A stretch of 60,407 nt of DNA, filler included, from Dugesia japonica (Eukaryota): the NCBI GenBank assembly GCA_001938525.1. It is 5 parts of 5 records of this genome, joined end to end, with 100 filler letters (N's around TTAATTAATTAA, not from the genome) between each part and the next. Parts side by side here need not be neighbours in the genome. Positions count along the whole stretch, not along the records: positions 10,517 to 20,873 come from MQRL01590355.1; 4 more parts are not named here. One strand, written 5' to 3'. Positions 1 to 40,788 of the stretch are shown here, one piece after another (position 1 is the stretch's first letter; each line of letters starts with the position of its first letter). The notes beneath the pieces are model-generated. The model made no database searches. It was not told the origin of the DNA and saw nothing but the letters and a program-made list of their open reading frames with translations. The position numbers and the translations under genes were made by a program.

Positions 1-1790
1 TCAGTGCAACCGGACTTTAAGAAGCCGTTTATATTAGCAACAGATGCAAGTGGATATACAATGATGTATTGAGCCAGTTAGACTAAGAGGGTCAAGAACG
101 GGTAATCGGGTATTTCAGTAAAACTTTTCAAAGTGCAGAAAAAAACTATAGTACAACAGAGAGAGAAATATTGGCAATAGTGAAAGCAGTAAAACATTTC
201 AACCAACTTATACTTGGACATGAATTAGTAGTGAATAAAGATCATCAACCGCTTACAATGATTGGACAAAAACTGTTACAGATAAATCGAATTGCAAGAT
301 AGGCCATGAAGCTACAAGACTATGCACCATTAGTAAAATATAAATCGGGTAAAGCAAATGCAAATGCAGATTATCTGTCAAGAGCGAGATTCACGGATGA
401 ACTAGAAGAAGATACTGAAACTAAATTGCAAGATAAAGAAGTAATTATTATTCAGCAATTAATGAATCGAGAAATACGAACTTTATCTATGATATTAGCA
501 GTGAACAAAGATTTNNNNNNNNNNNNNNNNNNNNNNNNNNNNNNNNNNNNNNNNNNNNNNNNNNNNNNNNNNNNNNNNNNNNNNNNNNNNNNNNNNNNNN
601 NNNNNNNNNNNNNNNNNNNNNNNNNNNNNNNNNNNNNNNNNNGACGATACGCAATAGTCAATGGATGGTTGATGATGAAAGAAAGCGACAAAATGTTGTT
701 AGTAATACCTAAAAATAGACAAGCAAAAATTTGGGAACAATATCATAATGGAATATTAGGTCATATGTCAGCTAAAAAGACGGAATCAAAATTGAGAGCA
801 AAATATTATTGGCCACATATGACGATCAGTGTAAAAACATGGGTAGAACAATGTTAGATATGCGCAGCAAGGAGAGGAACTAGGAAGAAATTCAAAGTTC
901 CGCTACAACCAATTCCAGTGCCCGCAGCACCGATGGATATAATAGCAATGGATATAATCGGACCATTACCACCAACAAACAATGAAAAGATATACATTTT
1001 AACAGTAGTAGATTATTTATCAAAATTCCCAGAAGCTTTTGCGTTGCGAGATCAGAAAGCAGCAACAATTGCCAAAGTGTTAGTTGACAAAGTATTTAGT
1101 CGTTATGGACCTCCAAAAAAATTTTAACGGATCAAGGGAAGAACTTTATGAGCGAGTTAATGAAAGAAGTTACAAGTTTCTTCAATATTTACAAACTACG
1201 GACATCGGCATATCATCCGCAGACGGACGGAATGACAGAAANNNTCAATCAAACTTTAACAAGAATGCTATCGAGCTACGCTTCAAAGGATCAAAGAGAA
1301 TGGGACAAACATTTGAATTTATACCTTTTTGCATATAGGATGGGAGTCCATCCAACAAGAAGAGCAACACCATTTAGTTTAATGTATGGAAGAGAATGTA
1401 TTATGCCTATTGATCTGGAATATCAACCAGCAATTTCACAATACATAAATGAAGACGATTATGTGACAGGCATGAATAGAGCGAATGAAGGGAATGTGGA
1501 AATTGGCAGAAGCAAATGCAAGATTTAGTCAAGAAAGTTACAAAGAATTACACGATCGTAAAGCCGACGCTCATACATTTAAAAAGGGGGATCTTGTGTT
1601 AGTAAACACACCGAAAATTGATATTGGAAAGACAGATAAATAAAGAGACCAAGCAAAGGCCCATATATGGTGATCGAAACAACGACAACAAATATAAAAT
1701 TAAAAGAATTGGGAAAACCACTAAANAAACCAAGTATCGTGCATGTATCAAGATATAAATTAGCAGCCAAAGAGGTAGAGGCAAATAAAG
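1..1790 (+). pseudogene. pol: Ty3/Gypsy pol, 3' part (RNase H, integrase HHCC, DDE core, GPY/F), decayed
   Basis: Translations give PDFKKPFILATDASG...KNYSTTEREILAIV...DHQPL...YKSGKANANADYLSR (RNase H); YHNGILGH...YYWPHM...C*IC (HHCC); MDIIGPLP...VVDYLSKF...TDQG...TSAYHPQTDGMTE (integrase core); KGPYMV. Several stops and frameshifts. Confidence 0.96.
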
Positions 1791-3418
1791 AAAACTTAGT
1801 AGAAGCAGAACCAGAAACGAGTAAAATGAAACGAGTTCTATTTAAATTAGACAAGCCNNNNNNNNNNNNNNNNNNNNCAATCAAATCAAGAAATCGTGTG
1901 ATGATGTTAACAGCAAAACCAATAACAAAACTTTTGGAGACTCAAGAACCAAACAAAAAAGTTAATCGGTGTAAAATCTGTCAAGAAACAGACAAGAAAC
2001 AGTACCTTTGTTAAAATGTCAATTGCTAAAAATGTGTTATCAATGTTTGAAAACGACACAAGATAAAATCGTGCATGTAGATTGAGAACTTAATAGAGTA
2101 TCATTACAAGTGTCGAGAGAAAACAGATATTAAAAGATCAGCATGTAAACAATGTATGGAAGTAGTACTAAAATTAAACGTGTCCAAGGAGAAATATAAA
2201 CAATGGTGTAATAATTGTATAACAAATGCGAGATGAATAATAAGTAGTGAAATTAGATGTGTCTTCAATCACTTAATGGGCTTATCAGCAGCAAAACCAC
2301 CAAGAGTAAATATTAAATTAACAACTGAGAAGATTATGAAAAAGTTTCAGCTTAATAATGATCTAACTCAATTTGAAAATAGACGAGATATACTTAATAA
2401 ATATTATCATTCAGTGGATAGCGGATTAATTCAAGAGAATTGAATTTGCGACTATCCAAGATGTGGACGATACGGAATGAATGGACACGAATCCGCAGAC
2501 AACTGGATACCACTGTGTAAATCATGCTTATGAATTTCACAGAGAATTACAATGAGGCAACAAGAAAGATAGACATTTAATAAACCAAATCGATTCGAGA
2601 TCGACAAAAANNNNNNNNNNNNNNNNNNNNNNNNNNNNNNNNNNNNNNNNNNNNNNNNNNNNNNNNNNNNNNNNNNNNNNNNNNNNNNNNNNNNNNNNNN
2701 NNNNNNNNNNNNNNNNNNNNNNNNNNNNNNNNNNNNNNNNNNNNNNNNNNNNNNNNNNNNNNNNNNNNNNNNNNNNNNNNNNNNNNNNNNNNNNNNNNNN
2801 NNTGAAATCAGATGCACTTATTGTAATAAAAATCGAATAGAAACCAGGATCGTAATAACGAAAAACAAGTTAAAAGGGGTATGCCTGAAATGTATAATAA
2901 TAATGGGGCTACAACTGAAAGAAGCTGTAGAGAAAATATGGGATATGATAGATACAAATCCAGAACAGACAGAAGCTCAGAAGTGTAATCGATGTGTATC
3001 AAAGAAACCAAATAAATGTCCAATTGTGGCGGAAGACTTAAAGAATTTATGTAATAAATGTTTCCAAAAGACAGAAATCGAGGTGAAAGACTCACTAATT
3101 TTAATAGCACGAAAGAGAAGCTGGTTGATGAATCATCCGGTACAGGATAATCAAGGATGTCTCCAATGTAAAACAAACGATGAAGCAATGGAGTTACCAA
3201 TACCAAATAATGTGTTCAAGAAGTTGTGTTTAATATGTACAGAGATAATGCGATATCAATTAGAGAAAACAGTTAACGAATTACATAAAGTAATGGCACA
3301 ACGGAAAATGGAAGAGCAACATCATTGTATCAAGTGGCAGCCTCGAATCGACGAGGACGCCGATCTTTCGAAAGAAGAGGGTGATTTGAAGAGACAAGGT
3401 GAAGCACTCATTAGGTAA
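1790..3418 (+). pseudogene. Post-integrase extension with six CxxC-x17-19-CxxC zinc-finger-like units
   Basis: CKIC..CYQC (~1970-2046), CKQC-x17-CNNC (~2143-2220), (Y)PRC-x17-CKSC (~2453-2527), CTYC-x19-CLKC (~2813-2893), CNRC-x18-CNKC and CLQC-x19-CLIC (ORF 2903-3418). Frameshifts and an N gap interrupt the frame. Confidence 0.7.
3370..3381 (+). promoter_or_regulatory. Polypurine tract of the Gypsy element
   Basis: GAAAGAAGAGGG at the end of the pol region, preceded by CGAGGACGCCGATCTTTC and followed by an abrupt shift to non-coding AT-rich DNA. Confidence 0.6.
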
Positions 3419-5635
3419 GATTTCATTCTACGATTAGAAATGGGGTTGCATGTAATGCAAACAAGTCTAAATATGATATCTTAAAAGATTACATTATCAT
3501 AATGGCTGAAGATTGTGAAAATTAATTATGTAATCTTGTTATAAAAAATAAATGTTTTTTTTTAAAATGGTTTTAAATTTATTTTATAAATAGTTTTTTA
3601 CTATTTTATAAATAGTTCTTATTATATTATAAACAGTAATATAAGTAATATTATAAGTAGTAATTAGAAAATATGTAAAAATATTACTTATTACAATAGG
3701 GATGCAACACAGATGTAACACAGATTGAATACACTTTTAATGTGATGAAGTATAGTTTTTATGGGTTGACTTAAAAATTTAACAAGTTTTCCTAGAAAAG
3801 AATATCAAAATTTATATTACAAAAATCATTAAAATCTGACATTTACTGGAAAATTAATGAATTTTAAAATAAAATGTAAAATTTTGAAATTTCATGAAAA
3901 TGAAATAAAATTAACACACGAAATAAAATTATTAGAAGTGTTGGGCTGAAACAAGCCTGTGGATAACAGGAAAATTTAAACAAAAGTGAACTATGGAAAA
4001 GAGGAGACAATGCTACTGAAGTAATAAAAGAAATAGGAATATTAACCATGACAATAAAGAATAAATAAAGTGACAACTTCCTCATAATGATAGATTAAAT
4101 GAAAATTGAATTGAATTAATAAGAAACCGAGAACGAAATAGAAATAATACTTGAAGGAAAGAATGAACCTAAATCATCACAATAAAGTCAAGGTTTGAAA
4201 TATGGCATAAATCAGATTTAATCATAAGAATTACGGAATACAGAAACCAGTGATCATTACATGGAAATTATAATAAAAGAAATAATAATAAATGAAGGTG
4301 CTTAAAAAGATAATGTTCGGAAAAATGTTCAAATGACAAATTCAGAGATAAAAGAATAAGGTTAAATGATAAATGATGAAACGAAAGAAAGAGAATAATA
4401 ATTCAATAAATGAACGAATATTTATTACCAGAATGTGAAAGGCAGAAAATAAATAATAATCAACGATAAAATGCTCCAAGGAAAATAATCAACGGTAAAA
4501 TACTCAAGGAAATAATAATCAACGATAAAATGCTCAAAAGAAATAATAATTACAGAATTAAAGTACGAAGGCTCCAATAATATATTCCGTAATAAAAGAA
4601 AATCATTTAATAAATTATGGCTCATGAAATAAAAAGCAAATTAAAAATGAAGTGTATGAATAATGTCAAGAAATGATAAAGGAGAAATAACGAACGAAAG
4701 CGAAATTAGAGTGTGNNNNNNNNNNNNNNNNNNNNNNNNNNNNNNNNNNNNNNNNNNNNNNNNNNNNAAAAAGATAGTTAAAATATAATAAAATAATTAT
4801 TTCGTAAAGTAAGATTAAAACAAAAGCAAGTTATAGTAAAAGATTTTATGAAAGTCAAACGAGTTTACGAGAAAATAGTTAAGACGTAAATTATTATTAT
4901 TATAGTAAGAACATTATTAAAATTATTGTAATGTCGATATAAACCTTTATATCATAATAATAAAAGTATTTGAATAATTAGAAATAATATTATTATTATT
5001 TTAGTTAAATACTATTAATTCAGAAAAAGAAAGCGAAGTTAAGAAATCAGAATTATATTTTATAAAGGAAAATAGAAAGTTAAATTAATATTTCAGAGGT
5101 ATATTGAATTTTTGTAAGATAAATATTAATAAAATGATTNNNNNNNNNNNNNNNNNNNNNNNNNNNNNNNNNNNNNNNNNNNNNNNNNNNNNNNNNNNNN
5201 NNNNNNNNNNNNNNNNNNNNNNNNNNNNNNNNNNNNNNNNNNNNNNNNNNNNNNNNNNNNNNNNNNNNNTTAAATTAATATTTCAGACGTATATTGATTT
5301 AATTGTATTTATTCACGTAGAAATTCCTATTTGTATTATAGCAGCAAACTATCTAAAATTATTATTATTTTAAGATAAATATTATTGAAATTATTATTAT
5401 TGCATAAATATTGTTATTTATAGAGAAAGAATTTGAATTAAGAGAACAGAGTTGTATGAGAAGAAAGACAGTAAAAAGTTATTTAAGTATTAAAAAATTA
5501 TATTAAATTATTTATGGATTTACGTTAATATTTATATTTAAAGATTAAAAACAAGAAATGAAAATTATTATTATTATGTTTAAATATTATTAATTTTAAA
5601 ATTTATTCGTGCCGGTCCGATGATCATGGATTTCA
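3387..5635 (+). mobile_element. Candidate long LTR (~2.25 kb)
   Basis: Starts TGAAG just after the PPT and ends TTTCA followed by T-TGGCACCG (PBS-like). Contains a ~30-bp tandem repeat. No second copy in the window to confirm. Confidence 0.4.
4451..4550 (+). repeat. ~29-30-bp tandem repeat, about 3 copies
   Basis: ATAATCAACGATAAAATGCTC(C/A)A(A)GGAAA repeated. Confidence 0.8.
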
Positions 5636-6241
5636 TTGGCACCGTTCACGTTGAAGCAGATCAATTGTAGACNATTTATATGTATCGGGTGAGCACCGTG
5701 CATTCTGAAAATAATCTGTGTCGGGTGAGCATCGCACAGAATACACAACAGTAAATAAGGATGCCGAGTGAGCACCAACCTTTATATGCAGCATTAAATA
5801 ATATGAAAAAATATACACGTCCAAATTTGGACATATTAGCAGAATCTGCGATTGAGCACCGCACGATTCAATGATTTTTCAAAGATTTGTAGAACTGCTT
5901 ACTGCAACTGTCAAAATTGATTTTACAGGGCAGTATAAAAGAAAAGATACCATCCAGCAAATTACCATTATTTACCATTTTTTAACATTTAATATTTTTG
6001 CCATATTTTTTCATTGTTAAATTTTACTAAATAGTTATTAGTCACTTATTAAGCACATTAATCGAGATATTTCTCTTAAAAAGAAACTCAGTTCTATCAT
6101 TAACAGACTACAAAGTAAATTTGAATTATATTTATTAGATAAAATCGGAAGACTGGAATGATGCTCATCGTTGACTGGCAACGATCGACATCAATGCTCA
6201 GAGATCCGTTCTTAATTTCGATGCGAGATTATCCACTAATA

Positions 6242-6490
6242 AAAGTTTATACTGCTATAATATTGAAAGTTTATAAAAGTTCATAATGCTATGATATTAA
6301 AAGTTTAAAATGCTATGATATCGAAAGTTGATAATGCGATGATATTGAAAGTTTATAATGCTATAATATTGAAAATTTATACTGCTATAATATCGAAAGT
6401 TGATAATGCGATGATATTGAAAGATTATAATGAGATGATATGTAAAGTTTATAATGCTATGACACTGAAAGATTATAATGATATAATTTT
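6242..6490 (+). repeat. 24-bp minisatellite, about 10 copies
   Basis: Unit AAAGTTTATAATGCTATGATATTG. It explains the repetitive ORFs 6315-6821(+) and 6297-6524(-). Confidence 0.9.
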
Positions 6491-7050
6491 TATGGATAAA
6501 AGAGTGGAACAACAGGTGCATCACTACAATAATCAGTTAGCGGAGATCTTGAGCAGGAACGAACACCGAAAGAAAGAACTGATATCTTTGCTGATACGAT
6601 CAACGGAAGTGCGAGCAATCCAAAGTTACTCAGCTAGAAATGGAAGAATTCAACAAGATGTCGGATCAGCTGAACATAAAAATCGAAGAGATGTTACGAC
6701 AGACTCTAATACCGCTCGATGGTACAAAAGAAAATCAGGAAACTTTATTGTGTATAATGATTCATGTGTTAACAGCAATACAGTTTTAAGTCTAGTATTT
6801 TCATGTCTTGATTATATTTAATGATAATGTGTTAAACTGAATCAAAGGAATAAGAGAAATTAAAAGAGAAATTCGTTTAAATTTTGTGAGTTCCGATTTG
6901 AAATGTTAATGATATATAATATGCTGAATGATTTAATATTTGATAAAATAATGGTTTAATAAGTATTGAATAATGAAGTTGATAAATCAAAACGAGAGCC
7001 GGATAGAAATGGAAATATAAAACGGGATACAGCATAGTCCCGCTGAATCC

Positions 7051-8813: not shown

Positions 8814-9086
8814 TTAAAAATACCTAATAGCCTTCACGTGGAATTTTTTATGATACCAACAAAGAGTAGATTTAGTTACAGAAGATAAGTTTGGAGAATC
8901 ATTAATATGTTGGGAAGATTCATTGGAATAGGAATTAAATTTTTCAGAAGTTGTGTCATTATTAAAGTTAGAAAACTTAATATTTTCTTTTGCATCACTT
9001 TTTTTGAAGTTATTTACGTTTTCATAAGATTTTTTACGGTTTTCGACTAGTTTAAATGCATCATTTACCCGTTGCCAAACAACCAA
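8814..9086 (-). pseudogene. Possible Gypsy gag C-terminal remnant
   Basis: Ends in LCWYHKKFHVKAIR, resembling the CWYHxxFGxxAxxC motif at the end of Gag in many invertebrate Gypsy elements. Confidence 0.35.
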
Positions 9087-9501
9087 TAATACTGTTTCAT
9101 TTTTGCTTAAATTTATTTAGGTTTGATATTAATTTAAATCGAAATGAATACTTTACATTCTTTTAAGTTAAACTTTTGACTTGTTTAGTTTTATATTTTA
9201 ACTAAATATTTATCAAAGATTTTCAGTAATTTTTTAATAAGTTAATTTTCAATTGTTTACTGTGAGATTTTTCATTAGTAATAATATCAAAAATCGTTAT
9301 TATCTACATCTTTCTTCCTTCATAATTTTCTATAATTCATTTGACAATTAATAATTAATTGCTTCTTCGTTCTTATTTAATTTTATCTTTATTTTAACTA
9401 AAGAGTTACAAACAAATTCACATAGGGAGGCAGGAAATACGATAGATATCCTTACAGTGATTATTGAAAATTTTGTTATTAAAAATGAAAATCAAATTTA
9501 A

Positions 9502-9570
9502 CCCTTGTGTGATCGGCGTGGTACAAATGTACTAATAGCGTATGTAAATTGCTATCCTCTAACACAAGGG
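9502..9570. mobile_element. 69-bp piggyBac-type MITE or footprint
   Basis: TTAA|CCCTTGTGT...ACACAAGGG|TTAA: perfect 9-bp TIR starting CCC with a TTAA duplication. Confidence 0.6.
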
Positions 9571-10416
9571 TTAATTTTATTTATAGAAAAATTATTTTTA
9601 ATAAAATAGTTAAACAATACTAATAAAGATAACAATAAATTTAATAAGACAATAAAATAATAATGAAAATAAAATTTATTCTGATTAGTATTAAATTTTC
9701 GAGAATTCATCGCCAATAATATTTTAATAAGTGTAAGTTTATAATTAATAATTGTTGAGATAATTTTAGGGAATACAAAAATCAAATAAAAGTAAAAAAA
9801 CAAAATTTTTATAATAAATATTTTATGATTTGACAATTAAAATTGAAATCGATTTTACACACTTTTCAAGTAGAAAGTGTAAAATCAATTAATTATTAAT
9901 CGAAATCAATAAATTTTTATTTTAAGATAATTTTCATAAAACAATTTGATTATTAAATGAAAATTTTTAAATTTATTCTTTTCGTTAAATTTTTAAAATT
10001 TAAATAAAAAAAGACACTCGAAATTATTTTGAATTAAATTTGAAATGAAAATAAAAATTGTTTGTTTATTAATGAAAATAAGATAAATATTTGCAGAAAT
10101 CTCAGTAAATGTAAGTTGATTGTTTTGTTTATTTTTATTTTTATAATCAACAATTTATTGGATTTATTTTGATATTTATAAATTTAATTTCGATAAATCT
10201 TTATATTCTTTCANNNNNNNNNNNNNNNNNNNNNNNNNNNNNNNNNNNNNNNNNNNNNNNNNNNNNNNNNNNNNNNNNNNNNNNNNNNNNNNNNNNNNNN
10301 NNNNNNNTGTGAGATTTTTTATTAATAATAATCACAATAGTAACAATCACATCTATTATCGATCACTTTATAAAACTTGAATAGATATTCTGGTGTCTGA
10401 TTATCTGCTTGAATTA

Positions 10417-10516
10417 NNNNNNNNNNNNNNNNNNNNNNNNNNNNNNNNNNNNNNNNNNNNTTAATTAATTAANNNNNNNNNNNNNNNNNNNNNNNNNNNN
10501 NNNNNNNNNNNNNNNN
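10417..10516. other. Artificial assembly spacer (also 20874-20973, 30264-30363, 42217-42316)
   Basis: Exactly 44 N + TTAATTAATTAA (stops in all six frames) + 44 N, four times. Confidence 0.95.
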
Positions 10517-12335
10517 TCACCGCCGTGAATAAGGAGTACTGCTCTCGGGAACTAGCTACTTTAGATAGTTCTCAGGCCGAAAGAATTTTATGTTTATCTA
10601 GAAGAGATAAGTCATGAAGGTGTCGGCAACGTTAAGCATACGTAAATGATAGGGTGACCACCCACGGCAGTTCGGTTGGGTTTTGCCTTGAAATCCATTT
10701 TCTACAGCTATTTGCTCATAACCTTACTGAATTTTATTGATAAGGTGAAATGAGTCCTGGTAGAATCAGCCGAAATTGATTCGGAGAAACTTGTGATAAT
10801 TGAATTTCAGTGTTGACTAGAAGGTACATCAGTTGACAAATATGGAATCAGATTAGCGGGAGTTGGAAACCTAGGTAGAGTTTCAACTGTAATTTTACGT
10901 CAGAGCAGCACGAAAGTTACGTATCAGCGGAATTTCGATTTCCTTTGAAATCCTGCACATTAGCCAGTAGACCGGATACTTCTGGAGATTACGATTGAGA
11001 TTGTGACACATAATTTGGAGAGCCTGGAGTTGAATCGAAATAGACTACCAGCTACTCCATGAGATTATAGATTTGCGAAGCGATAATCGCAGCTGAAATA
11101 ATAGACTACCGGTTACTGAGTATTTGAAGAGATTTTAAAGGAGATTTTAGTTAAGATATCGCATGGCTGGAGTCGCCGAGACCACCAATCAGTGCAAGCG
11201 ATCAAGAATAAATACTTGGAACCTTACTGGTTGACCACCGGAAGGAGAACACGGCTGAAGATCTGATCGATGATAATGGAATAGAGAGAATGATAAATGA
11301 TATAGATTTGGAAATGAAATGTATTGATAGGATTTAATGAGGTTGAAGTGATTATTTTTGGATATTTTTGAAATGATTTAAGTGGATTTTAAAAGTTATT
11401 AGAGTTATTGGAGATTTTGGTTGAGACATTGGATATTGGAAATTTGAATTTGTAGTGGATTAATTGAGGTAAATGTATATGAAGAGTATTTTGGAGATAT
11501 TGAATAGAGTATTGTGAAAGCTATGGTGTTTTAGAGATACTAATGTGTACTAATGTGATGAGTAGTTGGGATAAGTATGGCCGAAGTAAAAAAAATGTAA
11601 TACAAAGATTATGATAAAGTAAAACGGTTATAAAGTGTAAAGATACGAGTCGACAAAGTAGATATCGCGTGTGCAAGAACTAAAAATAGTTAAAAGTGTG
11701 CAAATAAAGTCTAAAAAGTATGAGGAGTAGTAAACAAAGGTATGAAATGAATTAAGTTAAATTTGTAAAATTAAAGATGCGCATAACGAATTAAGTGAGT
11801 AAAGTAAAGTCAATGGATCAGATAAGTATGCAGTTTGTAAAAATTAAACTTAAATATGTTTATATGAGAGTGACAAGTAGATGTATAGTAAAGTAAACGA
11901 TAACAAGGGATGATGAAGTGAAAAAGTGTATATTGGGAATTAACAAGTACGAGTTATGAAATTATCAAGTATGTATAGAGAGTTTAATAGGTATGAATTA
12001 AAAGAGTGTGTGTAATTAATAAAGTGTATGCGTAATGAAGAGTGTGTGTATTGATAACAAGCTAACACAAATTAATGATAAATGCATAAAGAAGTGATGT
12101 AATTGGAGTGCAGAAGCCGGGAGGCTATCATATTTTACTTTTAGGTTATTCAACAAATCAAACGATCTAGAACTCAATCAGATAATTCACCATTGATAAT
12201 TCAACTGACAGATACAATCTACGCAATAAGACAAAGGATCAGAAATCTTATTCGAGTAAAAAATCACATCCAGCCAAGACACAGAGATCAGTAAGAGAAA
12301 TCAGCGCGATAACGACATATCGATCACTAAGTCAA

Positions 12336-13690
12336 TTGGATAATTTCAGAAGTGACAGTCCAGAATCAGGTGATGACTCAAATATGTCAGATAACGAGAC
12401 GAATAATTTAAATAAAACGTTGAACGATGACAATAATAGTATTAGCGGAACTAAAAGCAAACATGGATCGGAATGGAAAACGGAGTTTAATGACGAGCAT
12501 TTTTTAGGCGTTCCAGAAAAATTAGAGAGCTTTATAATGGCTTACGAAATTCATCGAAAGGCATGCAGATGGAGTGAAGAGCGAGCAGTAGATAGACTAC
12601 CGTTTTATTTTAAAGGATTGGCAAAAACGATATATTGGAATAAAGCAAAATTGGTCAAAGATGGAATAAAGACGTAGGCAGAACCGAAGAAACTTTAAGA
12701 GGACAACTTCAAACCATTGACATTACAAGGACAAGAAGTTCAAGATTTTACAGCAAAACGATAACTAAAAGATAAATCATTACAAACTTATGCAAACAGA
12801 GTAATGGAGACTCGGGAAATTAGAACTTGGAGAAGACGTGCAAGATAAAGTAATTCTTGGAATATTTATTAAAGGTCTCAGGAATGCAGAAGTGCGTAAT
12901 TGGGTAAACTTAAAACAGCCAAAAACAGTGGATGAAGCAAAAAATGAAGAAGGAGTATCACAACAGGTAGAAGCTTCACTGAAACAGGGAAGCATTTTTA
13001 AAATTGAGGAACCGGAGGTAAAGAAGGTTCCAAAGATAACCAATTTTATACCAGCAAACACGCAACCATTTTTAAAATCGTTGACTCTAGGTCAGAATCA
13101 ATCGGATAACAGAGGACAATTTAATAACTCGCGAGGAGGAAGTAATAATGGACAAAATAATTGGCAATCCGCGGGTAATCAAAACTTATTTAATTGTGGA
13201 AGATATGGACACATTACTAGAGAATGTCGTTCAGGATCATTAAGCTGTACTTTGTGTCAAAAGACAGAACATACGGCAGATCGATGTTTTACATCCAAAC
13301 TCATAGTATGTTATACTTGTAATAAACCGGGTCATACGAGCAGAAATTGTTTCAACAATACAAACCGAGGAGGATATAGAAATAATAATCGGGGATTTCA
13401 GAAGAAGTCAAACAATCAAGCAATCGAGAGTATGATGCAACAAAATAATAATCTAAGACAATAATTGCAAAGTAATCAGAAACAGAGTCAATAACGAGTT
13501 AATATGTTGCAGCAAGTAGTATAGCGACATGAAGCGACACAAAAAAGAGTATATGATAAACTCAAACAAGAACAAGAATACTTAAAGCTCCAAGTCGAGG
13601 AACAACGAGTAGCATAGATGAGATTGAACGAGAGAGCGGCACATAATAATAATGGTCAATGACGGGTGAATATGATGCGAGCAGTAAATG
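12336..13690 (+). pseudogene. gag: Gag (Ty3/Gypsy capsid, three CCHC knuckles, Q-rich coiled coil)
   Basis: FLGVPEKLESFIMAYE...WSEERAVDRLPFYFKGLAKTIY...FIKGL...VRNWVNLKQPKTVDEA; knuckles (F)NCGRYGHITREC, CTLCQKTEHTADRC, CYTCNKPGHTSRNC. Confidence 0.92.
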
Positions 13691-16053
13691 ATGAAGAGGT
13701 CAGAACAAGCTTCGATCAAACGACGAGTAGAGAGCATACTCGATTTAATACAAGGATTCAACGGAACGATCGACAGAAAACATTATTGGAAATTAATGAA
13801 TCATGTAATGGAACTAATGGAGTGTAGTCATCTAAGCCCAAGAACTAAAATGGAATGGCAGCCAATGATCTTGGAGTATGAAAGTGAAATGCGAGATAAA
13901 ACAATACCGGAAGACTTCAAAATCATAATCAATAAAACATGTAAAGAATTTAAAGAGCCATCTGGAGAGATAGCGCAGTATCAGGTCACCTTACAAAATG
14001 ATACGGTAGGAGGACTTTGTGCGCTATTAAGAATAAAAAGGTACTCGAAAGACCGCTGTATGATTATGTGTTATGCTCCAAGACGAGAGTAATCGAACAA
14101 GATGATATTGATGCGCAAATAACAAATTATGAAATTCGACCTGGACGTATAGAGATAATACAAGTCTTAGATTTAACAGAAATTTATAAAACGAAGCAAC
14201 CAGTGCGGCATTATTTACAATTTTGAACAATAAAGGAGATAATGAAGTCCTTGGAGCAGAAACTTTATCGATATACAACGGAGGTACGAAAACCAATGAC
14301 AACTGCTACACGAGACCGTCAACCCGTCAAATAATTCAATTTTGAACCGACTAAATTGGCAACAAGCAGATTAAATATATCTAGCAATGTTAAAACCGAC
14401 AAAGAAATCAATTAGACGATGACGAGATCAGCAATCAAGGTTCCACCATGTAATTTAGGAGTGATGGCACAAGTAAATATGATGACAACTAAAGAGATAT
14501 CTGATACTGAAAATGAAACAGATAATATAATCCAAAAAGAAATCGAGACAATAGAAGCATTACTAAAGATAAAGAGAGCCATCAAGGAACCGACAGCGCG
14601 ATCAAAGATGGAAATGAATCAACGGAGGCTATCGACAAAATATTCTCGATAAAGCGGAATCTAAAGGATAAATTAAACAGATGACGTTATTGGATGACAA
14701 TGAACCACTTGGCGGAAATAACTGAACTAAGACATGTAGATACTACGACTAAATAGAAGTGGAAGCTGCTAATCATGAAATACAAAGCTGAGGTAATAAA
14801 GGAATTAAAAAACAAGGATTATTTTGTCTGGGTCGGAGAATCAATCAAGCCAGTACCGATAGGTGAAGAGAGGTGGAGTCCAGAAAACATGTGACCAATA
14901 ACGTTAAAGGCGGAAATGACGAAATACTATCGTCCTAAAGTCATGAAAATTAAAGGAACAACAATTAGAGATTTAATTGAAGCTTTATCGGAATTAGAAT
15001 GGCCGAAAGCGATAACAGAATATATTATACATATTCCAACAATCAAGATCAAGATGATGTAGACGAACATGTATATACTTATGGAGTCAAACCAGGATGG
15101 GAACTGGAAATTAGATTGACCGACAAAGAACGAGTGTGTCGAGATCAAGAGAAATTATGGCCGCACTTAGATTTTCGAACAACAGAGGAAATTTTGATAT
15201 CGCTGTATGAATGTTTTATGAGTTATATAGTGCCGCTAATTAAAGATACGAAACTCAAAGAACGAAAAAATCAAATTTCAGATTCAAAGACTGAAGACAA
15301 CAAACCGAGTACGAGTCAAGAAAGATTATTCATTATGCGATCAATTTCAAAATTTTTGAGTAAAAGTAATAAGAGCCCGAAACAACCAACGATTATAAAT
15401 GATATTAGCATGAGTAAGTTGAGCGAGATAACGGTAGCAGGGACGATGATTCCGACAACGAATATTATCAGAATGTAGTAACTATAGAAAATTATGTCAA
15501 AGAAACCTTACGTCGAAAAGAAAGAATCCCGAAGCAATCGTATTGGAGAATATTGAATATAGCATGGGATGAACATTATTATTAGTGGACGAGAGGAGCA
15601 AAACGCAGTGCCAACCCAGAGTTAATTGAGAGGTACACAGAGCAAATAAAGAAGGAAACTGTGGGAGCATATTTTGGAGTTAAAATTAATTATCCGACGA
15701 TAGATGATTATTTAGTGACAACAATGCAAACAAAAGTGATTAAACGATTTGAGACGACAAATGCGGGTGAATTAAAGGATATTCTTAGTGAATTACTGTT
15801 AAAACATGGACTGGAGCGATATATAATACTATGTGATTATATGATAATTGAACGAGACAAATTGAATAACTGAGAAATGCATTTAATTGAGTTCAGGTTA
15901 AGACCTGGAGAGATTACAGAATTAACATTAGAATATGATGATGGTCAACCGAAAGAGTTTATGAAGTTATCAGTCAGTAAAATGCGAGCAAAAATGAGAA
16001 AAGTATATCAAGAGGAGATAGACCAATTCGAGTATTTAAAGTTAATACATGAT

Positions 16054-16455
16054 TGTTTTACAATTGCAATTATTATGAGAATAATTTTTGGACTTAACCA
16101 TTGATCGTTTTATAGAATTCATATAATATTAAAGCTTAGATCAAAATTATTGATATTGGATAACAATTCGATACTTCGACCTTGTCTTCGTCAGGAATTG
16201 ACTTNNNNNNNNNNNNNNNNNNNNNNNNNNNNNNNNNNNNNNNNNNNNNNNNNNNNNNNNNNNNNNNNNNNNNNNNNNNNNNNNNNNNNNNNNNNNNNNN
16301 NNNNNNNTTATTTTATATTTAATTATTTAATTTAATTATTGTAAATTATATTTAGTTTAGAATTGCTTTATTTTATTAGTATTTCTTCATGTTTTTTCTA
16401 TGAAGTGTAGATATGTAGCCTGTTCCTAGTGTTTTCCATGTAATAATACATGTAA
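16054..16455 (-). mobile_element. ~400-bp hammerhead-containing insertion (Penelope- or retrozyme-like) with 12-bp TSD
   Basis: TTAATACATGAT at 16042-16053 and 16456-16467; removing the insert rejoins LKLIHD|DQIALT. The terminus GAGAATAATT(T/G)TTGGACTTAACCATTGAT recurs at ~45177, and inverted at ~31800. Confidence 0.75.
16164..16200 (-). ncRNA. Minimal type I hammerhead ribozyme (one core mismatch)
   Basis: Minus strand reads CAATTC-CTGACGA-A-GAC-AAG-GTC-GAAG-TATC-GAATTG: stem I CAATTC/GAATTG, CUGANGA core, stem II GAC/GTC, GAAA changed to GAAG, short stem III with an NUH (AUC) site. Confidence 0.7.
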
Positions 16456-18291
16456 TTAATACATGATGATCAAATTGCATTGACAGCAACGACAGGAAAC
16501 GAAATGGAACCATGGAAAACCTTAAAGTAGAATTTAGCAAAAATCGGATTAGTAATAATTTTCATTATATTAAAAGTAGACAGAGGAAAGAGGTAATTGA
16601 TCGAATGGATCAACAAGGGTTGATATTTGGAGAACATTTTAATGAAGCTGTGAGAGCAATAGTTTATTTAAAGGCATCGCAAACGCCGAAATAAGTAGTG
16701 AAAGTAACAGCACATTTTCCAGATGAATCGAGTAAAGAATTTAAAGTGAAACGATGACAAAATGGGAGAAATTGATAAAACAAATACTAAAGTATGTGAA
16801 TAAACAATCATTAATAGACAAAGAAAATGTGGCAGTGGTAAAAAAGAGAAGATATTGTAATTTATTAATTACGGAGGATCTCGATGGAGAAGCAGTGAAA
16901 TTATCAGGTATATGGCCAGGCTTTATGATGAATATATATGTATTTGCAACAGGAGACCGAGAAAGAAATCCTTATATTAGAAGAGAAATCAGAGAGAATC
17001 TATGTCAAAAAACAATACAATATTATGTGGAGAATGTGAATCCATTAATGCCATGTGAGTTACAGGTGCATCCCGAAGACTTAAACTTTGAACTAACTGA
17101 ACGAGTTACAATGTTACAAACTGGATGAACAACGAATCGACTGTACAGATCGAATCAAGAGTTGAACAGATCCGCAGAGATATTAGAGATGAAGAATCGT
17201 AAAAAGAAGACAAATGAAGATGAGGAAAGTTTATATTATTAATCAACGAAGAGGAGATTTCAAAAGTAGACGTTCAGCATTTAATGGATCAAATGCTATT
17301 AAAAAGAGATTTAGCAATAGACGAATTGAGAGATTTAACATTTGAAATATCGAGATATAAAGAGAAATTTACGTGGGGACCGAAACAATTCAGACAGATT
17401 ATAAAACGATGGCATGTCAATGAAATAGATGAAATTGAGCCAAGGGAATACAATTTTCGAAAAGTAGATCCAGAAGAGTATATAACCAGGATAGCTGGCT
17501 TGGCTTACGAAACAATTGGAGATGTAAAGGAGAAAATACCGTTTGAGTCACCATATATTTTGACATTAAATGACAGAGAAATGTTAAGCGAAGATATAAT
17601 TGGAACATTAAACGTTCGTTGCAAGCAGACAGTTTAATTGTATATTAAACCGGAAGTAGGGAAGAGATAAATGAAAAATAAATTAGTTAAAGGTACAACG
17701 TTACCAACTGGAAAACAAATTCAACCGCAGATTACAAAGTATACGAAACCAATTGTAATCGACAGTGAAGAGGGTACGAGTAATACGACGTCAAAGTCAA
17801 CAAAGAGTAAATCAGCGAAGTCAAAAGGACATGTATCGTAAAGAGAAATTACGACAAAAGAAGATGATGTTATTAAACAAGTATTTAGATTACCAAGTGA
17901 TGACGATGACGAAGAGGAATTACAGATAACGAGAATTGATCCAGCAACAATGAGTCAAATGCCAGTGAAAAAGTAAAAGATAGTAAAGAGTAAATGTAAT
18001 CCTAGAGAAGTAGATATTGATATTCTATCACCAAGAATACCAGAGTAAACAAGACAAAAGCCACCTTCATTTTTAGAGAAATCACCTTCATTGATAGAAT
18101 TTGAGCAAAATGAGAGAATGCCAACTCCATTAGAATATGAATTTGGAGAAGAAAATATAATTCCACCAGTAGAATTTGAAGAGGAAATAACGACAACAGA
18201 TAATGCAATCGAGACTACAGATAATCAAGAAGAAACGACAGATCAAGAAATATATCAGAGAATAATGGTCGATGCGGAAACAGAAATGGAG

Positions 18292-18318
18292 CGGAAGGCG
18301 CGAGGCCGACCAAGAGGA
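18292..18318 (+). other. AT-hook motif within the retroelement polyprotein
   Basis: RKARGRPRG in ORF 18091-18897, after a long acidic/Pro-rich linker. Confidence 0.7.
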
Positions 18319-18420
18319 TCTATTACGACAAAAGGAACAACACAACGAAAACTTAAGCAAGATGAACAATTAGCAGCAGTATCACAAGAGGTCACGGAGA
18401 AATTTGAACCAGCAGAATTA

Positions 18421-18729
18421 TCGACAGAAAAAATAATGCATCAAGTATTATTAATATTATATCCGGAATTAAAGATGTGGATTGGAAATACAGTATTATC
18501 AGCAAAGTGTAAACATATTGCAGCATTATTGGAACCAATAATACAGAAGCTAACAGCATTTAAATGGACAGGAAAGAAAGAACGAGATAAATTAGAGAGT
18601 GCAGTTGAACGAATATTTGGAGGATGTCCAACTTCATCAAGAATTGCAGCGGCAGTAACATATTTAGTTAAACGGACGCACTTGGCGGTAATAGACAAAG
18701 GAGGATGGTCAGTGTGGAACGAGAAATTA
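18421..18729 (+). other. Bcl-2-like helical domain (candidate) in the retroelement polyprotein
   Basis: LESAVERIFGGCPTSSRIAAAVTYL resembles BH1 (F..VVEELFRDGVNWGRIVAFF); IDKGGWSVWNE resembles BH2 (IQDNGGWDAFVE); upstream helices sit in BH4 and BH3 positions. Confidence 0.5.
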
Positions 18730-18861
18730 AAACCGGAAACAAATCCACAACGAAACTTAGTAGAAAGAGCACGATTATTGATGAAAGATTACATAGACGA
18801 AATAGGGACAGAATCGAATGATAGAGCAAGGACGAATGCGAGTCCAAATGGTATACAATCA

Positions 18862-20873
18862 ATGTTAATGTTATTAATGTTAATGATGCTAATGTGACGT
18901 GGTGCAGCTATAAAAGTGTATGATTGTGATAAAATGAATATTGGAGAAACGGTATATTCTTTAGTAGACGTGGATGAATGTCCAGAAGTGAATCTAGAGA
19001 GTGTAGAACCAGTTCAAAAAGCGATACCATATTTTGTGTATGAGGAATCAGATTATTACAAGACAAAGGTAAGAAAATGTAGAATGACAATGACAGTGTT
19101 TGTGTATTATTGTGGGACAAGAAGCTATACAGCAATTATCGAAACTGGACAAGAAGTAAGACAGATCTCTCTAACAGGGCAGCAATGGGAAGAAGGATTT
19201 GTAACTGGAAAAATAAGAGTAGCAGACGGAAAAATTGTTAACGCTAAAAGTGGACAGATCATGCAACTAAGAATATTCGCAGCAGAAATTATATCGGATG
19301 AGCATGGAACATGTACTCGAGGTACCTATACTGTAAAAGGAGTAGTCACCAGTTATGTGGTAGTGATATAAAGTTATCGAGTCGAATTAAAGGAATATGA
19401 TATATTCTTCGATACAAAGACACAGATGATGAAAATGTACACTATGTGTAAAGCGTCAGATCTTTAATGTGACACGGGAACATCAACTTTAGTGTATAAT
19501 GTTAATCATCAAGAATGCGCAATGATATTTCTTAAAGAAACGGCTTTAAACTAATATCAAGGTAAAATGGTTATTAAAATAGATGAAAAGGAAACGACGC
19601 GACCAGTGGGGAAGGTAGATGAAGGCATGAAACCAAAAGCAGGTAAAATACACTGGGTAGAAACGCCAGTAGTTTTAATGTCGACTGACAAAAACGATAT
19701 GATCCGTTTGATACGAAAGAAAACNNNNNNNNNNNNNNNNNNNNNNNNNNNNNNNNNNNNNNNNNNNNNNNNNNNNNNNNNNNNNNNNNNNNNNNNNNNN
19801 NNNNNNNNNNNNNNNNNNNNNNNNNNNNNNNNNNNNNNNNNNNNNNNNNNNNNNNNNNNNNNNNNNNNNNNNNNNNNNNNNNNNNNNNNNNNNNNNNNNN
19901 NNNNNNNNNNNNNNNNNNNNNNNNNNNNNNNNNNNNNNNNNNNAAATATTAAAGACGAAATTGGCAACAGCAACTACAAATCCAGATAATGTATCACCAT
20001 TATTACCGATAGAGGAAGGACAATTTTGACGAACATTACCTCTCGTAATGTTCAAATATCGATGTAAAAAAAAGGATGCAACGTTGGCACCAAAGGAACA
20101 TAATAAATGCTATAATGAAGTAGAAATACTTTATGACAGAGAATAACGATTTGTGCAGCCAATCACTAGAGTTATATCACCACGAGGATATATTCCAAAT
20201 TTGATAAACTGTTCAAATTTATTTGAACCTTACTTTAAACTACAGAATAATAAATGGGTACGATTTCCAGAGAGACTTCCAGTAACAAGAGTCAGAAATT
20301 TTTCATGATTACAATTAAAAGGTGGAACACAATTTACACCGTTAAATATAGCGAAAGGAGGAATCTATCAACAAGAAGATTTGGACAAAGCAAGAGAACC
20401 TATGTTGTTTTCAGTAAAGATGATGTAAATTCTATCAAATCTAGTGCAAATAGCAGGATTGAGGATTCACAGCAGATGGTAGACCAAATTACGAATTATT
20501 ACTATCCCCGGATCATTTTCAGACAGCAACAGTCAATGTAATTAAGAAAATGTGGGGTCGATTCATAGTTTTTTGACAAGCAATGGCTGGATTACTAGGA
20601 ATAATTTTCATAAAACAGTCAAAGTGATATTGACACGATTATTGGCATGTTTGGACTTATACAAGAAAGAAAGATATCTTGGTCAATGATGATGGGAATA
20701 TTTCCAGCATGATCAAAGTCGGTAGTATTAAATAGTCATTCAAATGACTTACACTGTACGAGGAGATTATTGCGATATATGAGTCAAATAAAAGGAACAG
20801 ATGAACAGATTGTCAATCAGATTCGAGCAATGTGTAAAGATATGAGGAAACGAAAAGAAAGAAAAACGACAAT
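18862..20873 (+). pseudogene. env: Chuvirus-like (Jingchuvirales/Monjiviricetes type) fusion glycoprotein, env-like
   Basis: Signal peptide MLMLLMLMMLM*RGAA, then VYDC..YSLVDVDEC..KVRKC..YYCG..GTC..VVVI*S..MCKASDL*C; after the gap YRC..KCYNEVEI..FVQPITRVI..INC..W..GGIYQQEDLDKAREPMLF; TM region KMWGRFIVF*QAMAGLLGIIF..WSMMMGIFPA*S. The motifs follow chuvirus G order (GYDC, SLLDVGEC, YYCG, CYNELPV, GIYT.EDLD...MF, LWGGFITFG). Confidence 0.88.
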
Positions 20874-21149
20874 NNNNNNNNNNNNNNNNNNNNNNNNNNN
20901 NNNNNNNNNNNNNNNNNTTAATTAATTAANNNNNNNNNNNNNNNNNNNNNNNNNNNNNNNNNNNNNNNNNNNNTTAATCTCATTTCATAATATGACATCA
21001 TTTTTCCCAATTAAATGAATTAGGATTAAGTTTCAATATTCCATAAAAAGAAATGTCATAAAACACTATAAATACGAGACGAATACACTACAAGTTGACG
21101 TAGACGATAGTTTGGAATAAATTTACATGAAGGCGTGTAAAAGAAGACT

Positions 21150-36230: not shown

Positions 36231-36460
36231 TGTCAGGATAAGTAAATGAATATTTTAAGTTTTAATTTNNNNNNNNNNNNNNNNNNNNNNNNNNNNNNNN
36301 NNNNNAAGTTGTTTAAATATTCAGAGTGCTTGACAGAAGATTGAAAATCAAATAAAAAGAGTAAATAATTAAAAGGTGGAATTTCTAATTGTTTTAGAAT
36401 AAATATGTGAAAGTATGACTGACTATTTACTGAATGAGCACGTATGCCCTATTTCTAATA
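36231..36460 (+). repeat. 5' LTR
   Basis: TGTCAGGATAAG...TTTCTAATA, direct repeat of 40559-40788. Confidence 0.95.
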
Positions 36461-36473
36461 TGGTGGCAGCGGT
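36461..36473 (+). promoter_or_regulatory. Primer binding site, tRNA-Leu
   Basis: TGGTGGCAGCGGT is complementary to the tRNA-Leu 3' end ACCGCTGCCACCA. Confidence 0.85.
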
Positions 36474-36501
36474 TAATACAGATAGTATTACGGACCATCT
36501 T

Positions 36502-37514
36502 ATGTCTGATATCTACAGAAGACATGATGACATAGAAAAATTGATATGCAAGTGCGAAATGTATTTCGGCGTCAAAGGAATTAACAATAAAAAAAGATCA
36601 GGAATGGTTTGTAACGTGTTTGATAGAAGAGGAACTAGTTGGGAAGTATATTGAATTATTTAAAAAACAGAAGTATTCCAGGATCGACTTCACATAGCTT
36701 TTGGAAAGGAAAAAAGCATGATACGGGATTTCAGAGAACTATTAGATTTCAAACGAAATCATGAAGATGTGGAAACATATATTTCCAAAGTAGAAGAATT
36801 GATAAATAACTTATTTTCAAATAAAATTTTATACAAGAAAACATGGTGGCAAAGATGCTGATTCACTGTGCAGGCGATAGACGCGCAGAAGAAGTACTCC
36901 TTAGGAAAATAAATGAAGTTAATGGCATTAAAGAAACTTTGAGATCGTTAGAGAAACTGAAGAATAAAAGAGAACAAATTAATGTAGTTCAAAGCAGTCC
37001 AAAAGAAACGGTAAGATTTAATCAGACAGCTCGAAATGTGGATAGAAAACAACAACATAGTTGGTTAAAGTCTAATGATATATTTAGATGTTGGGAATGT
37101 GATAAAAAAAAAGGCCATAGTCGCCGAGAATGTCCGATGAGAAGACAAATGAAATGCTGGACGTGCGAAAAAGAAGGTCATATTAGTCGAGACTGCAGAG
37201 AAAATCAGATGAGACGATGCTTTTGATGTGAATTAAAGGGACACATTTTTAGAGAATGTAAAGAAACAACCAGCAATCAGACGAAGAACGAGGTTAGATC
37301 AAATATGTTGAACAGTAATGGAGGAATGAATCGAACTTATTATGACAACAAGAGAGTTAATGGATTTTAAAATATTAGATGTGCACCATTACATGTGATT
37401 CAGGAAGACTAAGAGCAAGGATTAAGTTATGAAAAGGATGGAGAAGATGAGAGATGAAGATTCCCAAATGTAGAGGCTCCGACAGTAGAGGAGCTAGTTG
37501 GAGCTGCATATTAA
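36502..37514 (+). pseudogene. gag: gag with three CCHC knuckles
   Basis: CWECDKKKGHSRREC, CWTCEKEGHISRDC, CF*CELKGHIFREC. Confidence 0.88.
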
Positions 37515-37699
37515 CTGGAAGTTAAATGGTATATCCTCAGGGAGTGGAGAAGTGAGAAGATGTGAATGCGATTGGAGAGAAAGTATTTAATTTTATGAAA
37601 AATGAGTGGTAGAAGTAGATAAGAGAGATGGAAAATGTTGGAGATAAAGAGACAAGCAGAGGCAGTAATTGAGTATGATGTATTTCAGGGTAGACAGGG

Positions 37700-40545
37700 A
37701 TGGGAGATAGGGATGGGAGATCAGTGGTGGGACCTTTGTTAGATTCGGGGGCAAGAGTAAACGTAATGAATTCAGAATGCCTTGTGAAGTTGGGGAAAGT
37801 ATCATTAGAATGTTGCGGGACAAAACTTTGGTTTGCAAACGACAGTTTATTGGAGAAATTGGGTACAGTTAGATTGTGGGTGCAATGGAAAGGAAGAGAG
37901 AAACAGATATTATTTACGGTAGTGAAACAAGTAGTACCGGATATTATAGGTGGTATGGAATTCATGAATGCGTTCGGGTTTTCATTGATATAACGAGGTT
38001 TAAATAGCAGTAATGCAGAATCCAAGAAGTATATTTGCAATATAGAAGATAATTTCGGGAAACAAGCTGACACAGATGAACAATGGAGGAAATCGGACAG
38101 TACGATAAATTGGAAAGGAGATGATCGGTTGGAGGATGTTTGTAGACAAAAATGGGGAGTATTTATTGCAGAAAAATTATATGTGGGTCGAACAAATACT
38201 GTTGATCACAAGATCATTACGAAAGGAGAGCCAATTAAAACGAAACCCTACATAAAACTGATAAATTTGGAGAGCAAAATTGACGAAACAATTTAAAACC
38301 TGTTTGATAAAGGCATAATAAGACGATGTAATTCTCAATGGAATTCACCATTGGTATTCGTATGGAAGAAAGATAAACAGGATATCAGGTTATGTTTAGA
38401 TTTCAGGAAGCTGAAAGCTATTACAGAGAGACAAGCGTTCCCAATGCCGAATATTGAATAGATGCTAGATATGTTGAAAGGGATGGCTTACTTCAGCACA
38501 ATAGACCTTGGTAATGCTTATTACCAAGTAGAGTTAGACAGCGAATAGCAGGAAAAGACAGCATTTTCGACTAAACAGGGTCAGTACTGTTTCAACAGAA
38601 TGACGTTTGGCATTGCAGCAGCGCCGGATACGTTTCAGAAGCTGATGGTAAAGGTGACGAAAGACATCAAGGGATCAAGTATATTTAGTTGATATCTTTA
38701 TTTTTTCTAAGACACGAGAAGAACATTATGGAATTGTAAAGAGTGTTGGACAGCATTAGTGAAGCAAGTCTCTGTATTAGCCCAGAAAAGTGCATTTTCC
38801 TTCAGAAAGAAATTAAAGAAATTAAAGAAATTTGTCTTAGGACAAATTATCAATTCAGAAGGAATTTGTACAGATCTGGTAAAAATAGAAGCTATTCAAG
38901 CTTTTGAAGAACCATTATGGGAGAAGAAATTGCGTAGCTTCATGGNCATCTGTAATTATAGAAAGTTTTTTCATGAGTATGCAAATAAATCTAGAAAATT
39001 GGAGCAGCTATGTAGCGGTCAAGGTAATACGAAGATAATTTGGTCTTTAGAGTTATCAGATGTGTTTAAAGAAATGTAGAAGGCTTTAATTTCTACATCA
39101 ATTTTAGGATATTTGAATGTGCATGAGGAATTTATTCTAGACACCGATGCTAGCTTTAGAACGAATGATGCGATGCTGTCGCAAAGGGATGAAGACGGAA
39201 ACGAAAAAGTGATAGCATACGGGTCTCAAGCAATGTCTACCCACGAAAAAGGATACTGCATAACTCGTAAGGAACTCCTGGAAGTATATTACTTTTGTTT
39301 AAGCTTAAAACATTATTTATATGCTTGACCATTTATTTTAAGAACGGATCACAAAGCGATCACGTTCATGTTGCATACAAAAAAACCAATTACAATGCAG
39401 TTCCAAACCTGGATTAATTTTCTAAGTAGTTTGGACATGAAATTGGAATTCAGGAAAAGTGAGAATCACGTCAATTCAGTTGTTTTAAGTAAATTGTACA
39501 GTGATAAATGCGTACAGTGCCAATTAATACATGAGGAGGTAAAGATGGGAAAATTGAAGACGAGAAGACTAGGAGACACTGAGGAAATAAAGAAGTTGGA
39601 TATTGACATGAGTGGAAATAGAATGTCGTAGAAAATTTGGCTATTAGANGAGACAATGGAGCAGAAGATTGTGGAGATTCATAAAGCATTATGTCATGGA
39701 GGCATAGAGAAATCGGAGAAATATATCTGCTAAAGATACGAAGAGAGACAGTTAAGATCAAGAATTAGAGAGATTATAAGAAGCTGTATTTTCTGTCAAA
39801 AAGCAAAGATTTCGACAAGTACAAGACTCGAAATAACTAAAGAATCAGACAGTTTTACTCCGTTCGAAGTGATGTTTATAGATATTTTTGGCCCATTAAA
39901 TGAGACGAAGAATAGGAAGAAATACATCCTTGTCATGATCGACCAATGTAAGAAGTTTGTAGTTTTATTGAGTTTAATTAGACAGGATGAAGGTACGATT
40001 CGAGATTGTATTTTGAAGCACTAGACTCTGAAATTTGGATGTCCAAGAGTGATACGTTCTGATTGCAGGAGTGTCTTTGAATGAAAATAGATGAAACAGA
40101 TAAAGCAAAGATTACGTGGCAAGTGTTGAGTCCTTATCATCATAGGACAAACGCTCAAATTGAACTCCAATTTCAGACGATTAGGGATTTATTAAACGCA
40201 TCGATACGAGATAGAGGAACGAGATAGAGGACAAAACAGAAAACTACACAATGTAGGCCGGCAGAGTTAGTATTCGGGAGACAGTTGTACAGGGAAGGGT
40301 GGTGGTCAAAAGAGAAGACGAACAAAAATCAGATGACAGATATAGCTAAGGATAAAAAAGCCAGACAAGAAGACATTTTCAAATAGGTGAGAAATTACTG
40401 GTAGAAGTAGAATCTTGAGATAAAAACCAAGATCGGTATGAGAGACCGTATTTAGTGATGAAAAAGATTCATGAGAGACGTTATGTAGTAGAAAGGAAAG
40501 ATGGAAAAAGATTGACGCGGAACATCGAAAAACCTAAAAATTTCT
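37700..40545 (+). pseudogene. pol: pol (protease, RT, RNase H, integrase), many stops and frameshifts
   Basis: LLDSGA (protease); SQWNSPLVFV.KK..IRLCLDFRKL..FSTIDLGNAYYQV..KTAFST..RMTFG (RT); ILDTDAS..VIAYGS..TRKELL..TDHKA (RNase H); HKALCHGG..CIFC..IDIFGPL..SPYHHRTN (integrase). Confidence 0.93.
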
Positions 40546-40558
40546 GGAAGGAGGAGGA
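40546..40558 (+). promoter_or_regulatory. Polypurine tract
   Basis: GGAAGGAGGAGGA immediately before the 3' LTR. Confidence 0.85.
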
Positions 40559-40788
40559 TGTCAGGATAAGTAAATGAATATTTTAAGTTTTAATTTAAGA
40601 AATTAATTAGAAATTAATTTAAATAAAAAAAAGAAGTTGTTTAAATATTCAGAGTGCTTGACAGAAGATTGAAAATCAAATAAAAAGAGTAAATAATTAA
40701 AAGGTGGAATTTCTAATTGTTTTAGAATAAATATGTGAAAGTATGACTGACTATTTACTGAATGAGCACGTACGCTCTGTTTCTAATA
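40559..40788 (+). repeat. 3' LTR
   Basis: Matches the 5' LTR except for three substitutions near its 3' end. Confidence 0.95.

Follow-up and report, generated by a model that had tools for sequence, protein, structure and literature searches.

A predicted chuvirus-related fusion glycoprotein in frame with upstream coding sequence in a decayed Ty3/gypsy-like element of Dugesia japonica

One scaffold in the 60,407-nt stretch of Dugesia japonica DNA analysed here (the window) carries a glycoprotein-like sequence in frame with a long upstream reading frame, and this arrangement raises the question of how, and as what part of which product, the envelope protein of such an element would be made. 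An earlier note on this DNA held that the env was produced as the C-terminal part of a polyprotein by way of an internal signal sequence, and that its chuvirus-like glycoprotein had been captured independently. The reading favoured here is that the scaffold probably represents a decayed, multi-copy Ty3/gypsy-like element in which a chuvirus-related glycoprotein (G) shares the frame of the upstream ORF and likely occupies the middle of a Gag-accessory-Env-Pol polyprotein of the Burro/GAG-ENV-POL kind.

Layout and decay of the element

The scaffold is bounded on both sides by 100-nt spacers (10417-10516 and 20874-20973) and ends at 20873, with the sequence 3' of G beyond view. Features recognized along it are collected in Table 1. 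Because diverged contigs cover all 30 bins of the scaffold in four of four runs, mostly at 80-95% identity, the element family must be present as many diverged copies, the summed contig depth not being equal to copy number. Contig depth keeps to a similar order throughout the element, the secondary insertion excepted.

Table 1. Features of the scaffold, in coordinates of the window
Feature	Coordinates	Strand	Remarks
Whole scaffold	10517..20873	+	Leader, gag, accessory region and env: the 5' part of a Ty3/gypsy-like element, multi-copy and decayed
Gypsy-type Gag capsid region	12372..13185	+	Broken: three stops in first part, frameshift near 12800
Three CCHC zinc knuckles	13186..13350	+	zf-CCHC E 4e-8; first knuckle without its first Cys
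Accessory coding region	13460..18861	+	Decayed, about 5 kb, between gag and env
Secondary insertion	16042..16467		Far more abundant short repeat; flanked by a 12-nt direct repeat; contains a 103-N gap
RGRP motif, presumably AT-hook-like	18301..18318	+	Similar motifs in relatives P0002, P0003 and P0007
All-helical segment	18391..18810	+	Lies where relatives have a Bcl-2-like domain; possibly a degenerate one
Internal hydrophobic signal-like segment	18853..18915	+	Interrupted in this copy by stop 18895-18897
Predicted class III (chuvirus/gB-type) glycoprotein ectodomain	18916..20450	+	PF24664; broken by stops, N gap and frameshift
Predicted membrane-proximal region, transmembrane segment and decayed cytoplasmic tail	20475..20873	+	Extends to scaffold end

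The insertion bears the marks of a later arrival. Its flanking repeats (16042-16053 and 16456-16467) form a target duplication, the bins at 16053-16744 are by far the deepest and stand well above their neighbours in all four runs, and one contig from another copy joins 16041 to 16462 without any insertion. A pol gene hidden in the 103-N gap was considered and rejected, because that gap lies inside the insertion, which is absent from another copy.

The copy itself is old and heavily decayed, and it cannot make any of the products proposed below. Five stops fall between 17224 and 18049. In addition to the stop at 18895-18897, G contains seven others in frame (19369, 19465, 19552, 20027, 20144, 20306 and 20574), together with frameshifts and a 219-N gap at 19725-19943.

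A gag profile built from three env-bearing relatives matches the capsid region with an i-E of 1.9e-8, the best among 810 chunks, and no Pao-family model of Pfam matches upstream of env. Both results bear out the view that the gag is Gypsy-like rather than Pao-like. Between gag and env, Pfam searches in three frames detected no protease (PR), no reverse transcriptase (RT), no RNase H (RH) and no integrase (IN), and tblastn with the pol sequences of relatives gave matches solely on other scaffolds of the window. Pieces of the accessory region scanned with Pfam yielded nothing below E 0.04. In this decayed sequence, a ubiquitin-like domain was matched neither by a five-sequence profile nor by Pfam, and Pfam found no MATH domain; a home-made exonuclease-like profile had no match in the element, and neither did Rfam. 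The RGRP motif of Table 1 is one that we take to be AT-hook-like, Pfam AT_hook reaching just E 8.4 in P0007.

The chuvirus-type identity that had been claimed for G is upheld by profile search. The Pfam family PF24664 (Monjiviricetes_fusion), for which the cut-off is 27 bits, matches both halves of G when the translation is read with X at stops: the first half, 18862-19368, at 63.2 bits (E 1.5e-17), and the second, 19946-20450, at 62.5 bits (E 2.6e-17). All motifs in the list on which the claim rested are found by three-frame translation. They fall into three frames: that of the upstream ORF (18862-19724), a second one (19946-20450) and a third one, which holds the membrane region (20475-20620). 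On sequence evidence, then, 18862-20873 encodes a chuvirus-related class III fusion glycoprotein. Its ectodomain is 29-40% identical to the envs of relatives by tblastn, and 20475-20615 is 38-66% identical to them.

Other repetitive sequences occur elsewhere in the window. Positions 1-3420 (+) hold the 3' part of another Gypsy-like pol (RNase H and integrase, 42-50% to relative P0008). The frame then continues into a long stretch that is rich in cysteines, with numerous CxxC pairs and without a firm Pfam match; the whole may represent the 3' half of a related giant element. The Gypsy element at 36306-40788 (+) is compact and decayed; its terminal repeats are 98% identical over 155 nt, and it carries no env alongside its gag knuckles, protease, RT, RNase H and integrase. 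Its primer site is presumably tRNA-Leu-like. A tandem array at 6228-6515, with about 12 copies of a 24-nt unit, forms an open frame.

The junction between the upstream frame and env

Translation confirms that the three ORFs singled out in the earlier note, delimited here as 17224-17637, 18049-18897 and 18898-19371, share one frame, and that a lone TGA at 18895-18897, which ends a hydrophobic stretch, splits G from the upstream ORF. The signal-like segment in which this stop lies was called from hydrophobicity and alignment; it holds the most hydrophobic 13-mers of the ORF and aligns with the signals of relatives.

The junction was tested over 18700-18960 with contigs from other copies. At codon 18895-18897 a stop is missing from 295 of 409 depth units in run X1 (13 contigs) and from 1420 of 1475 in run X5 (10 contigs). 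The TGA is absent from most of the depth contributed by other copies, and the stop is specific to this copy. No indel reaches a 25% share at the junction, and two contigs cross it with 0 gaps. Sixteen substitutions are listed on the 5' side of the ATG at 18862, and third positions of G's frame account for 11 of them (p = 0.004, a rough value, the rows sharing contigs and not being independent). Since the stop is absent elsewhere, the junction is gap-free and substitutions favour third positions, the upstream frame is a coding one that stays open into G. Continuity from gag to env was tested in this way at the env junction alone, the 5-kb region between them carrying many stops and frameshifts in this copy.

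The ATG at 18862 opens the hydrophobic segment, as might be expected if env came also, or mainly, from a spliced or subgenomic RNA starting there, as in Drosophila errantiviruses, and the in-frame junction were a minor read-through. Polyprotein and spliced routes can coexist, but the open, coding passage from the upstream frame into G that other copies show makes this second route unlikely as an account of the locus. RNA reads over the region number 0 and 2 in two runs, too few to test expression or splicing.

Relatives of env, what follows it and where it came from

An HMMER search of 1.84 billion proteins returned 127 matches at E <= 0.001, and the closest envs are 30-39% identical to that of the window. 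Of the 11 matches with E <= 1e-30, eight have 130 residues or more of a longer ORF ahead of the env signal; the other three begin at or inside env. Nineteen matches were scanned for further domains. In eight, G is followed by a protease within one ORF, five of these eight also carry RT and RNase H, and four of the five have an integrase as well; a zf-CCHC precedes G in two of the 19. The order G, proteases, RT, RNase H, integrase is seen in the 4844-aa protein P0128 and again in a 3426-aa open frame of L001.

Other searches were less productive. Word-based protein searches gave none from 5967, 530 and 1204 candidates, where the full HMMER search succeeded, and no relative was found among viral contigs. 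Two of 401 pattern matches in metagenome contigs passed; one of them, L002, was dropped as a chance match of 16 residues in a phage-like contig that is unrelated. A solved-structure search with alignment A1 gave nothing but proteases among the best 60 of 243 rows.

Several peculiarities of the relatives were recorded along the way. After env, P0003, P0128 and L001 have several tandem aspartyl-protease-like domains (seven stretches in P0128). L001 has a separate RNase T-like exonuclease ORF after pol (10617-12107, E 1.4e-5) and, at about 8900-10282, apparent extra signal-plus-membrane modules after its proteases and integrase. P0008 (HBK71150.1) is an env-pol retroelement polyprotein on a 9-kb contig that was deposited as a Flavobacteriaceae protein; it is likely host DNA binned into a bacterial genome.

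The position of env within the polyprotein is where the earlier proposal needs amendment. In nine of ten relatives the first protease motif lies 130-224 residues past the membrane motif, none being matched in P0005; in L001, in addition, the distance is 203 residues. Because the scaffold leaves 106 codons between the WGRF membrane motif and its end, and because the closest envs are continued in one ORF by protease, RT, RNase H and integrase, env is not expected to be terminal. The proposal of a polyprotein env made via an internal signal thus stands, with other copies lacking the stop and crossing the junction free of gaps, and its placement of env at the C-terminal end is probably wrong.

A terminal env would imply a pol-less gag-accessory-env element that is copied in trans by a helper. 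The 10.4-kb scaffold is without a detected pol domain, and relatives P0013 and P0020 end in or just after env with no pol shown. However, the scaffold ends before the point at which a protease would begin, the eight protease-bearing relatives, P0128 and L001 all run on past env, and P0020, which stops where the tail begins and sits on a 7.6-kb contig, may be contig-cut; a pol-less element is accordingly improbable. A reading of the locus as an insect element lacking pol is rejected in view of the relatives and the Burro layout.

With env placed in the middle of a Gag-accessory-Env-Pol polyprotein, its production can be pictured as follows. One long ORF would comprise gag, accessory region, env and pol, as suggested by the relatives and by general polyprotein topology. 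The internal hydrophobic segment would bring the ectodomain into the ER, cleavage by host signal peptidase at this internal signal would set it free, and the downstream membrane segment would stop transfer. Judging from relatives at 30-39% identity, protease, RT, RNase H and integrase would come next, on the cytosolic side and beyond the scaffold end, and the element's own protease would free this PR-RT-RH-IN portion. Env would let particles bud and fuse with neighbouring cells.

In seven relatives (P0005, P0007, P0013, P0020, P0047, P0070 and L001) a helical Bcl-2-like segment, which has a GGW-like motif at its end, precedes the env signal, with a short linker in between. Pfam Bcl-2 is weak in three relatives (E 0.00096, 0.012 and 0.055). 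Of 48 Foldseek rows obtained with a P0047 model, 46 belong to the Bcl-2 family, none of them reaching significance (best E 0.067), and a structural search (VIA) places Bcl-2 proteins at Z 5.9-6.9 among generic bundles. The corresponding segment of the window tops 810 chunks against a six-relative profile, yet with E 0.26; an earlier profile ranked it third, and hhalign gives it a probability of 1.4%. A single-sequence fold of this segment has a pLDDT of 50, with generic helical matches only and no Bcl-2 match. That it is a degenerate Bcl-2-like domain is plausible.

A more tentative idea, which we regard as possible and somewhat doubtful, is that the env signal doubles, after the signal-peptidase cut, as the C-terminal membrane anchor of the upstream Bcl-2-like domain. 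If so, one polyprotein would supply a membrane-tethered, virus-style death inhibitor in fixed ratio with the fusion protein and Pol, and the Gag precursor would be tethered too, in the manner of the flavivirus capsid anchor. Suppression of host cell death would then be tied to particle assembly in an invertebrate retrovirus-like element. A narrow literature search found no paper on this signal-as-anchor topology; the available portions of PMC6431247 note the BCL2-env order and not the topology.

The origin of env was addressed with a quick tree of 84 of 129 rows, midpoint-rooted and without bootstrap; the 45 others were dropped for short cover or, in the case of P0128, as a near-duplicate of P0006. 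All labelled polyprotein envs share a 28-row clade with the window env (SH-aLRT 97). A separate 51-row clade (SH-aLRT 98) holds P0062 and P0043, the G of Tacheng tick virus 4. In this quick tree with one named chuvirus, P0043, the window env lies in a clade of its own kind and is not nested among chuvirus G proteins. P0062 (1259 aa) has a BEL/Pao-type knuckle and then a chuvirus-like G directly in frame, which suggests a gag-env order in a BEL/Pao element too; its BEL label is our assumption from the knuckle motif.

Had this Gypsy lineage recently and separately captured the G gene of a chuvirus, the significant similarity to the Tacheng tick virus 4 protein (E 7.6e-9) would be accounted for. 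Identity to that protein is just about 22%, however, against 30-39% to retroelement envs, the env clade of the quick tree is distinct from both P0043 and P0062 with its BEL-type gag, and PMC13524379, in the parts accessible to us, argues for ancient vertical inheritance, all of which makes a recent capture very improbable. The claim of independent capture as a new event is likewise unsupported: in the quick tree env groups with Gypsy polyprotein envs and apart from P0043, and both the combination of Gypsy with a chuvirus-like G and an in-frame env between gag and pol have already been published. Least probable of all is that gag and G have no relation to each other, either as chance neighbours or as a chimera of the assembly, with a solo endogenous viral G next to a piece of a transposon. 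A short-read scaffold with internal gaps, its whole stretch spanned by no single contig, might allow this, but contigs from other copies bridge the junction gap-free, the same group of relatives matches both gag and env, and depth away from the insertion is similar in order throughout the element.

Comparison with known elements

The published systems closest to this locus are compared here through the accessible portions of the papers cited. Anakin is a BEL/Pao element with a chuvirus glycoprotein (PMC7642597) and thus carries the same glycoprotein family on an LTR retrotransposon. The gag examined here, in contrast, is of Gypsy type, and Pfam gives no Pao-family, RT or integrase match before env. 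Endogenous viral elements (EVEs) with Jingchuvirales glycoproteins are described in PMC10084718; the present env differs from these in belonging to another clade than the named chuvirus G of the quick tree. Gypsy fragments next to chuvirus-type glycoproteins had already been reported in this literature (PMC7642597, PMC10084718).

A closer parallel is provided by errantiviruses of GAG-ENV-POL order whose env is of the HSV/gB type. Chary and Hayashi (PMC13524379) describe such elements with a gB-type env in nematodes, bryozoans and flatworms, including nine flatworm elements entered as ENV_HSV, as well as 114 arthropod Gypsy elements with a chuvirus-like glycoprotein, and they equate chuvirus-like G with the gB type. 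Like these, the present element is of Gypsy type, with a chuvirus-like/gB-type env after gag and signal and membrane segments that flank the ectodomain. Its HSV/gB-type assignment comes from the PF24664 match, a sequence criterion rather than a modelled trimer fold. Ty3/gypsy Pol after env is seen in relatives (RT_RNaseH, Integrase_H2C2) and would lie outside the scaffold here. Their elements are intact, and the limits of their search favoured compact ones, whereas about 5 kb of extra coding sequence separates gag from env in the element studied here. The main text of PMC13524379, as far as it was available, makes no mention of 'Burro', 'Bcl' or 'fused'.

Burro/GYPSM1 elements, as presented in the available parts of PMC6431247, are giant gypsy-like planarian LTR retrotransposons with env in frame between gag and pol. 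Their hallmarks are a length of >25 kb, long LTRs, a Gypsy Gag with two or three CCHC knuckles, ubiquitin-like and MATH domains between gag and BCL2, and BCL2 just before env; the env was likened to gypsy Env by HHpred, with mononegavirus glycoprotein matches noted. The element described here is similar in having a Gag with three CCHC knuckles (the first degenerate), a long accessory region and then env in frame. Further likenesses are seen in relatives, namely Bcl-2-like and ubiquitin-like segments before env (the latter a weak Pfam match in P0007), and PR-RT-RH-IN and ankyrin repeats after it. Unlike Burro/GYPSM1, the present copy is decayed and cut at 10.4 kb, with LTRs and pol out of view, and its env is assigned by Pfam to the Monjiviricetes class III family; the likeness to GYPSM1 drawn here is one of layout. 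Membership in the Burro group is likely. The gag-accessory-env-pol layout is already published, and this copy is a further, decayed example of it rather than a new kind. To these known systems it adds evidence at the DNA level that, across copies, the accessory region joins env through an open, coding junction.
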